From Methanocaldococcus indicus (GTDB taxonomy: Archaea > AGJL01 > Methanococci > Methanococcales > Methanocaldococcaceae): a stretch of DNA of 64,000 nucleotides. Within the stretch, counting starts at the first letter, position 1, and every line of letters begins with the position of its first letter. Position numbers and translations under genes: made by a program. The stretch covers positions 576,001 through 640,000 of the forward strand of contig NZ_CP186926.1 in NCBI RefSeq assembly GCF_049554935.1, read 5' to 3'. Of the stretch, positions 55,798 to 60,623 are shown one piece after another. The notes under the pieces were generated by a model. The model made no database searches and was not told where the DNA came from. It worked only from the letters and a program-made list of their open reading frames with translations.

Positions 55798-56444
55798 TTT
55801 CTCACTACTTTAAATCTTCCAGCAGAAGAATAGAGAGGATAAACTTCAATAATATTCTCTAAAAATCTTTTTGTATATGTATTTTCTCCATGAATAAATA
55901 TCTCTCCCAAATCTTCAACAGTATTTATATCAACTGAGATATAAAAAGAATCATATACATAATACTTTAAATTTCTTTTTTTTGCTTCTTCTAAATGCTT
56001 TAAAAAGCTAAAACCTTCATATCTCAATTTTATAGTGTCTTTGTCCTTTAAATATAGTAGGTTAGTTCCTCCACCTCTTGAAGGTGAAATAATTAAATCA
56101 TAGTTTTTAGAGAGTTTTATAACATCTTCTATATTCTTTTTTTTGATTAAAGGAATATCAGCAGGAATAACTAAAATATTGTTTTTAACTACTTCAAAAG
56201 CTTGATAAAGTGCATTATTTAATCCAGAAGATTTCTCTTTAATAATATCTACTTTTAATTCTTCCTTAGCAAAATTTAAAATTTTTTCATCTTTACTAAC
56301 AATATACACATTCAAATTATCTAAAACTTTTGTTATATCTCTTAGCATATTAAAAATTAGCTCTTTTCTTTCTACCTCTGTTAGAAAATTTGATAATCTT
56401 GTTTTTAAGTTGTTTAAAGGTGAGACAGGAATTATGACATTCAT
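55794..56444 (-). CDS. cofC: 2-phospho-L-lactate/PEP guanylyltransferase
   Basis: IPV....KTRLS, GLN.AL, PADIP, GGGTN, SF..H, DINT.EDL. Confidence 0.92.
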
Positions 56445-57478
56445 CTTTTCCCTTCTAATAATAGTTTGAAGTATTCTATTGATTCATTAGTTCCCAAGAC
56501 ATATAAAATATCTCCTTCTTTTATTATAAATTCTGGACTGGGATTTATAAAGAATTCATCTCCTCTTTTAATTCCAACTATTGTAGCTCCAGTTCTTCTT
56601 CTAATATTTGCCTCTTTAATTGATTTATTTACTAATGGTGAATTTTTATTTACAACAAACTTCTCTAAATGAATATCTTCATTATACTCTTCCTTAGCTA
56701 CTTTTAAAAATGTCCTCAGAAAATCTAAAATTCCTGGCCTTGTTGAAACAACAGCCATTCTTAGGCCTCCTAATAAATAAGGAGATACAATTTTATTAGC
56801 ACCTGCAACTTTTAATTTTTTTATAGATTCTCTTTCATTGGCCTTAGCAACAACTTCAATTTTTGGATTTAGTTCTTTAGCTGTCAATGTTAAAAATACA
56901 TTATCAGCATCTGTTGGTAAAACAGCTAATAGGCATTTAGCTTTATCTATCTTTGCTTTTTTAAGAATATCTTCTTTTGTAGCATCACCAACAATATATA
57001 CAAATTTGTCAGGCTGTTTTTCAAACTCTTCTTTTAAAATTTCTTCATTTTTATCTATTGCTATAAAAGAAATATTTTCTTTTAAAAATTTATCCCCTAT
57101 AACTTTTCCCATCTTACCATATCCACAAATAATATAATGATTTTCCATTTTTTTTAATTTGCTGGCCATACTTTTCATTTTAATCAGCTCTCTAAATTTT
57201 CCCTCCACTATAAATTCTGTAATAATTGAAAAAAGATACATTACAATTCCTACTCCTAAAATCAAATAAATAATAGTTAATATCTTTCCTAATTGTGTTT
57301 TTGGAGTAAAATCACCATAACCAGTTGTAGTTATTGTTATTACACTAAAATAGAGTGCATCAAAAAAGTCAATATGTTCTATAATACTTATTAAGTAGGC
57401 ATAAGTTAGTATAAGTAATATAGAGAAAAATAAAACACCAATCAATTTTTTTATAGTTTCTTTATAATAGACATCCAA
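56441..57478 (-). CDS. Potassium channel protein with TrkA-N/TrkA-C (RCK) domains
   Basis: TITTTGYGD selectivity filter, IICGYG..G, GDAT, DADN. Confidence 0.92.
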   Translation of the reverse strand: MDVYYKETIKKLIGVLFFSILLILTYAYLISIIEHIDFFDALYFSVITITTTGYGDFTPKTQLGKILTIIYLILGVGIVMYLFSIITEFIVEGKFRELIKMKSMASKLKKMENHYIICGYGKMGKVIGDKFLKENISFIAIDKNEEILKEEFEKQPDKFVYIVGDATKEDILKKAKIDKAKCLLAVLPTDADNVFLTLTAKELNPKIEVVAKANERESIKKLKVAGANKIVSPYLLGGLRMAVVSTRPGILDFLRTFLKVAKEEYNEDIHLEKFVVNKNSPLVNKSIKEANIRRRTGATIVGIKRGDEFFINPSPEFIIKEGDILYVLGTNESIEYFKLLLEGKR

Positions 57479-57574
57479 ATAACCACCAAAAATAAAGATA
57501 GTTTTTAAATATAGCATCTAATTATAAATGTTAAATGATTATACAATATATAAAATTATCTTAGGTGAGAGTAG

Positions 57575-58792
57575 ATGAGAAATATATTCATAAAAAAGTT
57601 AAATTGTAAGCCAATTGAAGAAAATGAGATAGAAATAGTAGAAAGAAAAGGTTTAGGGCATCCTGACTCTATAGCTGATGGTATAGCTGAGAGTGTTAGT
57701 AGAGAGTTATGTAAAATGTATAAAGAGAAATTTGGAACTATTTTGCACCACAATACTGACCAAGTTGAAGTTGTTGGAGGACATGCATATCCAAAATTTG
57801 GCGGAGGAGAGATGGTTACTCCAATATATATCCTATTATCTGGAAGAGCTACAATGCAAATTGTAGATGAAAATGGAAATATAACAAAGCTACCAGTTGG
57901 AACAGTTGCTGTTAAAGCTGCTAAGGAATATTTAAAAAAAGTTATTAGAAATTTAGATGTAGATAAGGATGTAATTGTTGATTGTAGAATTGGGCAGGGT
58001 AGTGTTGATTTAGTAGATGTCTTTGAGAGACAAAAAGATAAAATTCCATTAGCAAATGATACCTCTTTTGGTGTAGGTTATGCTCCTTTATCAACAACTG
58101 AAAAATTAGTTTTAGAGACAGAAAAATTATTAAATAGTGAAGAAACAAAAAAAGAAATTCCTGCCTTGGGAGAAGATATAAAAGTTATGGGTTTGAGAGA
58201 AGGAAAAAAAATAACTCTCACAATTGCTGCTGCAATTGTTGATAAGTATGTTAATAATATAGAGGAGTATAAAGAAGTTATAAACAAAATTAAGAAGAAA
58301 GTAGAAGAACTATCAAAAAAGATAGCTAATGGTTATGAAGTAGAGATTTGTGTAAATACTGCTGATGACTATGAAAGAGAATCAGTTTATATAACTGTTA
58401 CAGGAACATCTGCTGAGATGGGTGATGATGGTTCAGTAGGTAGAGGTAATAGAGTAAATGGTTTAATAACCCCATTTAGACCTATGAGTATGGAAGCAGC
58501 AAGTGGTAAAAATCCTGTTAATCATGTAGGAAAGATATACAATGTCTTAGCTAATTTAATAGCAAATGATATAGCTAAGTTAGAGGGAGTTAAAGAGTGT
58601 TATGTAAGAATTCTAAGCCAAATAGGAAAGCCAATCAATGAACCAAAAGCTTTAGATATTGAGTTAATTGTTGACGATAATGTTAATTTTAAAGATATAG
58701 AAGAGAAAGCTAAAGAAATTGCAAATAGATGGTTAGATAATATATTAGAAGTTAGAGATATGATAGTTGAAGGAAAAATAAACACCTTTTAA
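57575..58792 (+). CDS. mat: S-adenosylmethionine synthetase (archaeal type)
   Basis: [56 protein letters not shown]. Confidence 0.96.
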
Positions 58793-58911
58793 AACCTTTA
58801 TTTTTTAAACAACAATATTTATGTATTTGGATTAATAAAATAGAAAAGTATTTATAGAACTTCTAAGTAATACATATATTAGGAATAAAAAGGATAAAAA
58901 GGTGATAAAAA

Positions 58912-59346
58912 ATGGTAGAAGGAAGAAATATAGATGTCAATGAAATAGTGAGAGCTTATGTATCACAAATAGAAGGAATTAGAGCAGAAATTGCAAAATT
59001 AGATGCTGCTGTATCTGCATTAAGACAATCATTAGCAACATTAAGAAGCTTAAAAAGCTTAGGAGAAGGAAAAGTAGTTTTAGTCCCAGTAGGTAGTATA
59101 GCACAAGTAGAAATGAAAATAGAAAAGTTAGATAAAATAGTAGTATCCATTGGACAAAATATTTCAGCAGAATTAGAGTATGAAGAAGCTTTAAAATACA
59201 TTGAAGAAGAAATAAATAAATTATTAGCAGCAAGATTAATTTTAGAACAAACAATAGCTGAGTTATACACAAAAATTGAAGAAGAAATAAACAAACTACA
59301 AGAAGAAGAAACAAAAGAAGAGGAAGAAAATGCTAAAGAAGAGTAA
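58912..59346 (+). CDS. Gamma-prefoldin (filament-forming alpha-class prefoldin paralog)
   Basis: Coiled-coil arms around two beta-hairpins (VLVPVGSIAQVEM; IVVSIGQNISAE.EYEEAL); acidic tail; resembles M. jannaschii gamma-PFD from recall. Confidence 0.85.
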   Translation: MVEGRNIDVNEIVRAYVSQIEGIRAEIAKLDAAVSALRQSLATLRSLKSLGEGKVVLVPVGSIAQVEMKIEKLDKIVVSIGQNISAELEYEEALKYIEEEINKLLAARLILEQTIAELYTKIEEEINKLQEEETKEEEENAKEE

Positions 59347-59485
59347 GGAAGAGATTATTAACTTTATTAAATCTCTTCCTGAAAATAGAAAAATTTTTAT
59401 TAATCTTTTTGGACTTTGGATAGAAGTGAGTAAAGAGGAGGCTATAAAGTTTATAGAAGAAAGTTATAAAGAAAATAATAAATAA
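59330..59485 (+). CDS. Unannotated 51-aa protein resembling a prefoldin beta-hairpin core
   Basis: Manual translation MLKKSKEEIINFIKSLPENRKIFINLFGLWIEVSKEEAIKFIEESYKENNK*; GAGGA just upstream; overlaps the gamma-prefoldin stop by 17 nt. Confidence 0.7.
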   Translation: MLKKSKEEIINFIKSLPENRKIFINLFGLWIEVSKEEAIKFIEESYKENNK

Positions 59486-59503
59486 ATTTAAATTCTTTTA
59501 TAG

Positions 59504-59515
59504 AAAATTTTATAT
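59504..59515 (+). promoter_or_regulatory. BRE/TATA promoter of tRNA-Leu
   Basis: AAAA followed by TTTATATA, about 40 nt upstream of the tRNA; same layout as the tRNA-Ala promoter. Confidence 0.55.
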
Positions 59516-59555: not shown

Positions 59556-59643
59556 GCGGGGGTCGCCAAGCCTGGCCAAAGGCGCTGGATTGAGGGTCCA
59601 GTCCCGCAGGGGTTCGCGGGTTCAAATCCCGTCCCCCGCACCA
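59556..59643 (+). tRNA. tRNA-Leu(GAG)
   Basis: Acceptor stem GCGGGGG/CCCCCGC; anticodon arm CTGGA-TTGAGGG-TCCAG; long variable arm; GGTTCAAATCC; encoded CCA followed by a T-tract. Confidence 0.97.
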
Positions 59644-59690
59644 TATTTTTTTGTTAATTTTTTGTGTTATGTGGTGCTATATTATGACAT

Positions 59691-59870
59691 AATATTTATA
59701 TAATAATTATGATAAATTATAATATTTATATAATAATTATGATAAATTATAATATTTATATAATAATTATGATAAATTATAATATTTATATAATAATTAT
59801 GATAAATTATAATATTTATATAATAATTATGATAAATTATAATATTTATATAATAATTATGATAAATTAT
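59691..59870. repeat. Perfect tandem repeat, 6 x 30 bp (AATATTTATATAATAATTATGATAAATTAT)
   Basis: Six identical contiguous units read directly; no spacers. Confidence 0.97.
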
Positions 59871-59906
59871 ATATAATACCATTTGAAACATTAATAGGTG
59901 TATAAT

Positions 59907-60623
59907 ATGAGAGAGTGTGATAAAATTATCCACAATCTTGAATCATTCAATAATATAAATGAAATTTTAGACTACCTTAGAAAAGAAATAGAAAAAAGTA
60001 ACAATGGACTCCTATTAAAATATATATTAGCTTCTTATTTAGAGAGTTTAGGACAAATTGAAGAAGCAATTAATATATATAAAGAGATTATTAATAAATA
60101 TGAAAAGGCATTAATCGCAAGACTTAGATTAGCTGAGATATATAGACATAGAGGAGAATATAAAGAAGCTATTGAACTTTATAAAGAACTAATAGAAAAA
60201 ACACCTAACTGTATATATTCATATTATGGACTTTCATCTATATGTTATCATACGGGTAATTTAGATAGAGCATTGGAATATATAAATAAATGTTTAGAAA
60301 TCTATCCAAACTTTTTAGCAGCAAGAATATTAAAAGGAAAAATATTGTTATATCTTGGTAAGTTATCTGCTGCAATAGTAGAGTTTCATGAAGCTTTAAA
60401 ACAAAATCCTCATGAATGTGAAGCCTTATATCATTTAGGGCTAATTCATCTAAAACTTAAAGAATATGATGAAGCTCTTGAAAAATTTGAAATGATATTA
60501 AATAGAACTCCATACCATATAGGGGCATTATTTGGAAAAGCTTTAGTTTTAGAGAAAAAAGGATTAGTTGCAGAAGCTTTAGAAATATATAATAAAGCTT
60601 TAAACAGATATATAGAAAAATAA
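59907..60623 (+). CDS. Tetratricopeptide repeat protein
   Basis: About 6 TPR motifs; AGGTG SD before ATG 59907. Confidence 0.88.
   Translation: MRECDKIIHNLESFNNINEILDYLRKEIEKSNNGLLLKYILASYLESLGQIEEAINIYKEIINKYEKALIARLRLAEIYRHRGEYKEAIELYKELIEKTPNCIYSYYGLSSICYHTGNLDRALEYINKCLEIYPNFLAARILKGKILLYLGKLSAAIVEFHEALKQNPHECEALYHLGLIHLKLKEYDEALEKFEMILNRTPYHIGALFGKALVLEKKGLVAEALEIYNKALNRYIEK

Follow-up and report, generated by a model that had tools for sequence, protein, structure and literature searches.

Here we describe a short gene that overlaps the 3' end of the gamma-prefoldin gene of Methanocaldococcus indicus, and we suggest that its 51-residue product, an armless relative of prefoldin beta subunits, is a dedicated partner of gamma-prefoldin (gamma-PFD) that may end its filaments. 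Both genes lie near the end of the window, i.e. the whole stretch of 64,000 nucleotides that was analysed (contig NZ_CP186926.1, positions 576,001 to 640,000, forward strand); coordinates below are those of the window unless a contig or locus is named. The short gene, called mini from here on, is conserved under purifying selection and, in Archaea and Bacteria alike, occurs strictly together with gamma-PFD. Its conservation and its homology to the beta class are well supported; the function that we put forward for this apparently undescribed two-gene system is a proposal. As the best explanation of the data as a whole we propose a dedicated armless beta-class subunit ('mini-beta') that ends gamma-PFD filaments, and we give this reading a probability of roughly 0.5. 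A filament cap at this locus had already been proposed in an initial annotation of the same DNA; its observation is confirmed here, and its interpretation is partly supported.

A conserved short gene overlaps the end of the gamma-PFD gene

The features of the pair are the following.

58912..59346, plus strand: gamma-prefoldin gene (144 residues), an alpha-class prefoldin with two beta-hairpins and an acidic tail.
59330..59485, plus strand: mini-prefoldin gene (51 residues, 51 codons), a predicted armless beta-class prefoldin core; ATG at 59330, TAA at 59483-59485.
59320..59324, plus strand: GAGGA, Shine-Dalgarno-like element of the mini open reading frame (ORF), 5 nucleotides before its ATG and within the gamma-PFD codons for EEEEN.
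59330..59346, plus strand: overlap of the gamma-PFD and mini frames, 17 nucleotides, with mini in the +1 frame relative to gamma-PFD.

The 144-residue protein belongs to the prefoldin alpha class (Pfam PF02996, E 1.4e-22; TIGR00293, E 2.3e-26) and is the ortholog of M. jannaschii gamma-PFD, as had been recognised before: it matches Protein Data Bank (PDB) entry 6vy1 ('Prefoldin subunit alpha 2', the M. jannaschii filamentous PFD) at E 3.4e-56 over residues 6-141, and in a tree of alpha-class sequences it groups in the Methanocaldococcus gamma clade with support 100/99. Given its 72-75% identity to the M. jannaschii protein, we expect that it can also self-assemble into filaments. On re-reading the sequence, the coordinates that the initial annotation gave for the mini ORF, its GAGGA element and its overlap with the gamma-PFD stop all proved correct. 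GAGGA presumably pairs with the 3' end of 16S rRNA, and the 17-nucleotide overlap suggests that translation of the two genes is coupled.

The 51-residue mini protein was searched against 60 related genomes (tblastn-type search). The ORF was found at E ≤ 3.4e-12 in 8 of the 16 other genomes of the genus, and in all nine genus genomes that carry gamma-PFD, the window's included, the frame is intact, 50-58 codons long, and always +1 over the gamma-PFD stop. The string GA(A/G)GAGGA(A/G)GAAAATG, which encodes EEEEN of gamma-PFD together with the ATG of mini, is kept at each of these nine loci; EEEEN is the sole conserved piece of the otherwise variable acidic gamma-PFD tail, as would be expected if the same bases also serve the start of mini. 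Pairwise ratios of nonsynonymous to synonymous substitution rates (dN/dS; Nei-Gojobori, overlap excluded) were 0.037-0.414 in the 28 of 36 pairs with defined dS, synonymous sites being saturated in the remaining 8, and fifteen residues are invariant among the nine Methanocaldococcus copies. An intact conserved frame, low dN/dS and invariant residues together indicate a protein-coding gene under purifying selection, so that the expectation of a conserved ORF next to gamma-PFD is borne out, and we regard it as practically certain from these comparisons that mini is a real gene.

Weaker matches beyond the genus (E 0.0025-1.3) lie in ORFs of 138-1178 residues or contain stops, and were set aside as noise. 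The one exception is a 106-residue open frame in a Thermococcus-like genome (G045), which led to a beta2-like ORF adjoining an alpha2-like gene and is taken up below. For the M. jannaschii copy (P0002, locus L009) one database gene call has 71 residues and starts 17 codons 5' of the start conserved in nine species; this annotated start is probably too far upstream.

Mini is very probably the hairpin core of a beta-class prefoldin

The initial annotation had seen in mini a beta-prefoldin sequence pattern and a single beta-hairpin with helix stubs and no coiled-coil arms. Both are recovered here. AlphaFold2, run with the family alignment, gives a model with a mean predicted local distance difference test score (pLDDT) of 89, in which a helix at residues 6-15 is followed by strands at 22-26 and 29-33 and a helix at 35-49, i.e. 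a single hairpin between helices of 10 and 15 residues; helices of this length in a 51-residue protein leave no room for the long coiled coil of a prefoldin tentacle. When the model was compared with the PDB using Foldseek, ranks 1-7 were all prefoldin beta chains (probability 0.93-1.00, TMq 0.53-0.63), with root-mean-square deviations (rmsd) of 1.9-2.8 Å over 39-43 columns. At the sequence level, 26 of 28 members of the mini family match PF01920 (Prefoldin_2) at E ≤ 0.01, the best at 1e-9, and a profile of the nine Methanocaldococcus copies finds, among PDB entries, 3aei (prefoldin beta2 of Thermococcus KS-1) at E 6.9e-5 and 2zdi (the P. horikoshii beta subunit) at E 0.029. Alignment A2 leaves out P0002 and P0026 (N-terminally extended duplicates), P0006 (a shorter start of P0003) and P0008 (the window copy).

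Several results count against this assignment. The window copy itself has no prefoldin match in Pfam or NCBIfam at E ≤ 10 and none in a whole-genome scan with PF01920, so that its membership rests on its relatives, the profiles and the predicted fold. The bacterial copies score 23-27.3 bits with PF01920, at or below the curated cut-off of 27.6. The Foldseek E-values are only 0.009-0.1, which is modest because mini is so small, and VIA-align places prefoldin chains at ranks 1, 3, 4 and 5 with Z 4.2-4.7, within noise. Taking both sides together, we consider it very likely that mini is a homolog of prefoldin beta. What it has kept of a beta subunit is the central hairpin and two helix stubs, which makes it a truncated variant and not a canonical member.

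Two other candidates were rejected. The sole Pfam row for the window protein, ILEI at E 0.07, was taken as noise. An all-helical structure was raised by a single-sequence phmmer search of the PDB, where a de novo helical repeat (8g8i, E 0.0087 summed over repeats) ranked above 3aei (E 0.04); it was discarded because the profile search, AlphaFold2 and Foldseek all give the hairpin.

The resemblance between mini and gamma-PFD that the initial annotation had aligned by eye is reproduced by profile-profile comparison of the two families (probability 73%, E 3e-5, 40 columns), where LKSLGEGK is paired with LPE(N/G)RK, and ISAELEYEEALKYIEE with WIEVSKEEAIKFIEE; a 21-residue gap in this alignment removes the two inner strands. 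Plain BLASTP of the window mini against gamma-PFD aligns just 13 residues, at E 0.007.

The pair is kept together in archaea and bacteria

A search with gamma-PFD returned orthologs (E ≤ 2.7e-56) in exactly the 8 mini-bearing genomes and the window's own, the next best match among the genomes searched being at 1.1e-19. The remaining 8 genus genomes, at 81-99% completeness, yielded neither the ortholog nor mini. The genes that flank the pair vary between species, and in the closest relative (G003) the same pair stands amid quite different neighbours; the pair thus behaves as a unit.

The mini profile retrieves about 30 database proteins of 48-71 residues, among them bacterial ones from Desulfurobacterium, Thermovibrio and Persephonella. 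Annotation pipelines have named some of these relatives 'prefoldin subunit' or 'chaperonin cofactor prefoldin', and the family is apparently annotated but unstudied. In a collection of species genomes we confirmed 16 mini loci, one in Methanocaldococcus and 15 in records of bacterial metagenome-assembled genomes (MAGs), of which one is labelled WOR-3, one 'uncultured bacterium' and the others Desulfurobacteriaceae, Hydrogenothermaceae, Persephonella, Aquificales or Aquificota. A gamma-PFD homolog lies directly 5' of mini on the same strand in all 16 (phmmer 5e-59 to 4e-29), and the two genes overlap, or are separated by at most about 20 nucleotides, in 25 of 25 loci. Mini is thus strictly linked to gamma-PFD in both Archaea and Bacteria.

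Five bacterial genomes with the pair were scanned with the prefoldin models. In each, PF02996 matches nothing but the gamma-like gene over the cut-off, and PF01920 finds its best match in the mini next to it, over about positions 20-77 of the 106 in the model; the PF01920 scans showed no full-length prefoldin beta. With no canonical alpha or beta found in any of the five, gamma-PFD is the sole prefoldin-type partner there.

An exhaustive HMMER search of 1.84 billion cluster representatives gave 41 matches to the mini family at E ≤ 1e-3 and 13 at E ≤ 1e-10, mostly of 46-96 residues and grading into a few full-length beta-like proteins (93-118 residues). So few matches among so many representatives point to a small, specialised family. 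A search for homologs of 113-2000 residues had a sole match, P0031 (145 residues), in which mini runs into unrelated sequence on a 971-nucleotide contig; it was dismissed as a probable read-through or assembly artefact.

Some of the bacterial loci have features of their own. A 2.4-Mb bacterial MAG holds a second short PF01920-like frame (G065:C320:27122-27292; 61 residues, E 6.9e-4, one internal TAA), which may be an additional or a decayed copy of mini, or else point to a mixed bin. In two Aquificota loci (L064:2103-3526 and L065:2090-3523) the pair sits in a tight same-strand cluster behind a UPF0128 gene (PF03673, E 8e-100) and an ORF of about 240 residues. The latter has no Pfam family, and its 239-residue version is unmatched in the window's genome. 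UPF0128 was found among 14 control genomes only in M. jannaschii, and the copy in the window's genome is far off (C1:1338885-1339547); it is another gene common to these vent archaea and bacteria. At the Hydrogenothermaceae loci (L065:4167-5051, L068:3003-3497) a YfdX-family gene (PF10938, E 2.7e-21) lies directly 3' of mini, and at one of them a fasciclin-domain protein is encoded 5' of the gamma-like gene; this neighbourhood may be stress-related.

Relation to the alpha2/beta2 pairs of Thermococcales

The Thermococcus-like genome mentioned above (GC-rich) carries a 97-residue beta2-like ORF about 30 nucleotides 3' of a 144-residue alpha-class gene, and this alpha-class gene is the best match to gamma-PFD outside Methanocaldococcus (1.1e-19). 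Compared by hhalign, the mini profile fits the beta2-like ORF with a probability of 92.5% (E 4.9e-7), and the match to the window genome's own canonical beta is weaker (53%, E 1.3e-4). A beta-type gene directly 3' of an alpha2/gamma-type gene is the arrangement in 9 of 9 Methanocaldococcus loci, 16 of 16 loci of the collection and one Thermococcus-like locus.

A maximum-likelihood tree was built from 43 alpha-class sequences, the canonical alphas being represented by the 21 best ORFs from L039-L058 and L084; near-duplicates (L005, L007, L060, L072) were left out of the tree and of alignment A3. One group (96/98) unites the Methanocaldococcus gamma-PFDs (7), the bacterial homologs (14) and the Thermococcus-like alpha2, apart from the canonical alphas including the window genome's own; its placement rests on the single Thermococcus-like sequence, on a long branch. 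Within the group, the Methanocaldococcus gamma clade (100/99) is sister to a Desulfurobacteriaceae/WOR-3 group (95/88), with Hydrogenothermaceae outside.

We infer from these alignments and trees that gamma-PFD and mini are a derived alpha2/beta2 (PfdC/PfdD-type) pair whose beta partner has lost its arms. The most likely source of mini, as synteny and tree both suggest, is the beta2 (PfdD-type) member of an alpha2/beta2 pair that serves in heat stress. In T. kodakarensis the second prefoldin pair, PfdC/PfdD, is reported to contribute to survival at high temperature (PMC4473059). The module would appear to have been exchanged between Aquificota and Methanocaldococcus; the branching order hints at bacteria as donors and archaea as recipients, in a tree of short proteins whose outgroup is one long branch and whose root is not established.

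Does mini bind gamma-PFD and end its filaments?

A complex of two gamma-PFD and four mini chains was predicted with family alignments and gave a median ipSAE interface score of 0.49; among three controls the highest score was 0.08. In the calibration of this score 58 of 80 solved complexes came up to its mark, as did 2 of 110 mismatched pairs; those that did so with a value of 0.60 or under were only 7 of the 80 solved complexes, and both mismatches that passed. Contacts agreed to at least 91% between runs, with partner pLDDT of at least 69. The job differs from the calibration set in that alignments made for this family and several copies of each chain were supplied, and the model may also be reproducing prefoldin hexamers that have been solved. 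We think it likely that mini binds gamma-PFD.

Prefoldin arms carry the client-binding ends; an armless mini can thus have only a structural role, at the beta-sheet platform. We suggest the following scheme. Mini would be made from the same transcript as gamma-PFD, and since its start and Shine-Dalgarno-like element lie within the last gamma-PFD codons, its translation is probably coupled. Its hairpin would dock on the beta-hairpin platform of gamma-PFD, in the place where beta subunits sit in the alpha2-beta4 hexamer; these hairpin surfaces also serve gamma-PFD in its own polymerisation. A one-hairpin protein cannot bridge to a further subunit and so would close the filament end: the docked mini would complete the barrel and offer nothing to the next subunit, as a natural chain terminator comparable to the engineered cap TERM. 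Mean filament length would then be set by the ratio of mini to gamma-PFD, as fixed by coupled translation. The modelled anatomy of mini, a single hairpin and no second interface, is what such a cap would need.

The scheme draws on published work. gamma-PFD is described as polymerising through its beta-sheet regions, and engineered one-sided caps do exist, as the initial annotation had held: TERM is a gamma-PFD with one dead interface that caps filaments, their length being set by the TERM:gamma-PFD ratio (PMC4895442). Filaments of over 2 μm and up to about 5 μm are reported in vitro, and filamentous gamma-PFD structures of up to about 500 nm in M. jannaschii cells (PMC11117396).

Several points weigh against mini as a filament cap. 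The complex prediction was graded as 'weak support', with no interface returned. The M. jannaschii-like locus L009 carries the mini gene; filaments in mini-bearing cells make a strong equimolar cap unlikely and are compatible with a weaker or sub-stoichiometric one. Cell size (about 1 μm) alone could explain why filaments are shorter in cells. Finally, half of the genus genomes lack the pair altogether. We rate capping or limiting of filament length by mini, taken as a claim of its own, at slightly less than an even chance.

The alternative that survives best is that mini is a stoichiometric structural subunit and not a sub-stoichiometric cap, filling all beta positions around a gamma-PFD dimer in a two-armed gamma2-mini4 particle or decorating the core of the filament. 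What forms in the cell would then be a hetero-oligomer, and the long recombinant homopolymer would be due in part to the missing partner. The overlap of the genes, with their conserved Shine-Dalgarno-like element, suggests that the two proteins are made in roughly matching amounts; no other prefoldin system was found in the bacteria, where the two resemble an alpha/beta pair; and the hexamer-like prediction with its 'weak support' and ipSAE of 0.49 vs 0.08 was made for just such a 2:4 composition. The Thermococcales homologs PfdC and PfdD are described as a complex (PMC4473059), and the published filaments were built from gamma-PFD expressed alone (PMC4895442, PMC11117396). Against this, gamma-PFD filaments reach about 500 nm in M. 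jannaschii cells that have mini, as seen with a tagged gamma-PFD copy (PMC11117396). We regard this alternative as unlikely, with about the weight of an outside bet.

It is also conceivable that mini acts elsewhere, e.g. by replacing beta in the canonical alpha2-beta4 prefoldin during heat shock or on another client, and that its linkage to gamma-PFD reflects co-regulation. The window genome does have canonical alpha and beta genes, the hairpin core resembles canonical beta chains too, and the evidence for binding to gamma-PFD is weak. However, neither canonical alpha nor full-length beta was found in the five pair-bearing bacterial genomes; mini occurs only alongside gamma-PFD (9 of 17 genus genomes), whereas canonical prefoldin is expected in all of them and was confirmed in the window's genome; and the adjacency is kept at all 25 loci despite differing flanks. 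We thus consider a target other than gamma-PFD improbable.

That the ORF is a decaying beta2 remnant or a chance frame in a Lys/Glu-rich, AT-rich region, giving no functional protein, might be argued from its shortness and from the lack of a Pfam prefoldin match for the window copy, but this is close to refuted by the frame that is intact in nine of nine genomes with its 15 invariant residues, by dN/dS of 0.04-0.41 with synonymous sites near saturation, by the retention in bacteria of mini, 32-59% identical to the window copy, along with the gene beside it, and by the confident fold prediction.

We thus return to mini as a dedicated subunit that ends gamma-PFD filaments. In its fullest form, gamma-PFD would be neither a homopolymer without a partner nor peculiar to M. 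jannaschii; the two genes would make up a module that has travelled between Aquificota of deep-sea vents and Methanocaldococcus, with mini as the natural terminator that sets filament length. This combined view we hold tentatively, with the odds somewhat against it.

Transcription signals and neighbouring genes

Two putative transcription signals frame the pair.

58851..58856, plus strand: TTTATA, possible archaeal TATA box, about 55 nucleotides upstream of the gamma-PFD start; read by eye.
59496..59511, plus strand: two TTTT runs, possible archaeal oligo-T terminator of a two-gene transcript, directly 3' of the mini stop; read by eye.

If TTTATA is a real promoter, it would give a single transcript for gamma-PFD and mini, and the TTTT runs could end it. 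The hexamer also appears in the output of a promoter scan whose pattern is bacterial-type. A scan for stem-loop terminators found none near the pair; being bacterial-type as well, it is uninformative for an archaeon.

On the 5' side, gamma-PFD is preceded by a 405-residue ORF (57575-58792, plus strand), a putative archaeal S-adenosylmethionine synthetase, and before that by a 358-residue ORF (56441-57517, minus strand) that resembles a TrkA-type potassium-channel protein. On the 3' side, a tRNA-Leu gene (anticodon GAG; 59556-59643, plus strand) begins 70 nucleotides after the mini stop. Between it and a 241-residue ORF resembling tetratricopeptide-repeat (TPR) proteins (59898-60623) a 30-bp AT-rich unit is repeated 6.1 times in tandem without a mismatch (59689-59871, 100% matches).

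Implications

A 2024 paper from the laboratories that work on gamma-PFD presents it as a unique M. jannaschii chaperone, induced by heat shock, which has no interaction with alpha or beta subunits; what form it takes in the cell, and what it does there, are said to be unclear, and the main text names no downstream partner (PMC11117396). The initial annotation knew of no description of such a system for length control, and we found no paper on a partner: in the literature searched, which did not include the original 2007 gamma-PFD report or the 2018 chapter 'Prefoldins in archaea', there is no description of a natural gamma-PFD partner or of the bacterial pair. Work on gamma-PFD as a chaperone of the heat-shock response goes back almost two decades, and throughout it the protein has been taken to assemble alone. 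A conserved partner gene over its 3' end alters the way in which its cellular form and role are to be studied: recombinant work has left the partner out, and any change at this end also hits the partner's start.

If the view of a mobile module with a terminator holds, mini would be the first factor from nature that controls how long a chaperone filament grows, and Bacteria would have in the pair a prefoldin system complete in itself. One paper states that bacteria lack prefoldins (PMC5635000); the pair in Aquificota contradicts this general statement, and shows that a gamma-type prefoldin can work without canonical alpha and beta. Nanowires, hydrogels and enzyme assemblies are built on gamma-PFD filaments, a scaffold that withstands heat, and capping, if true, would add a natural, tunable control of length to this nanomaterial, as well as a concrete hypothesis for how cells check a polymerising chaperone.

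Comparison with known systems

The window gamma-PFD resembles M. jannaschii gamma-PFD (6vy1) over nearly its full length, with the two-hairpin region and the acidic tail in both. The loci differ in their surroundings: the window copy sits between the 405-residue ORF and tRNA-Leu, while the M. jannaschii-like locus L009 is flanked otherwise.

With canonical archaeal beta subunits (PF01920; 1fxk, 2zdi, 2zqm), mini has in common the core of helix, single hairpin and helix, at an rmsd of about 2 Å over 39-42 columns, and the motif LP..R.IY...G...VEV.KEEA, in agreement with the beta-prefoldin pattern given in the initial annotation. It differs in lacking the coiled-coil arms and in its gene, which overlaps that of an alpha-class subunit, whereas the canonical beta gene of the window's genome is far away.

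The Thermococcales beta2/PfdD subunits are closer still, 3aei being the best match of mini among solved structures by sequence (E 6.9e-5). The gene order is alike, directly after an alpha2/gamma-type gene. Both pairs are tied to heat, PfdC/PfdD through survival at high temperature (PMC4473059) and gamma-PFD through its heat-shock induction (PMC11117396). In contrast to beta2, with its 97-99 residues and two long helices, mini has 51 residues and helices of about 10 and 15, covers only about positions 20-77 of the 106 in PF01920, and on the model should have no client-binding tips.

The nearest functional parallel would be TERM (Glover et al. 2016, PMC4895442, and earlier studies that it cites). 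The action that we propose for mini is the same, in that one functional beta-sheet interface joins the filament and stops its elongation. TERM is described as a full-length gamma-PFD in which the X2 sheet is mutated and the coiled coil kept, whereas mini is a natural, separate gene of the beta class, armless and with one hairpin, for which capping is proposed.

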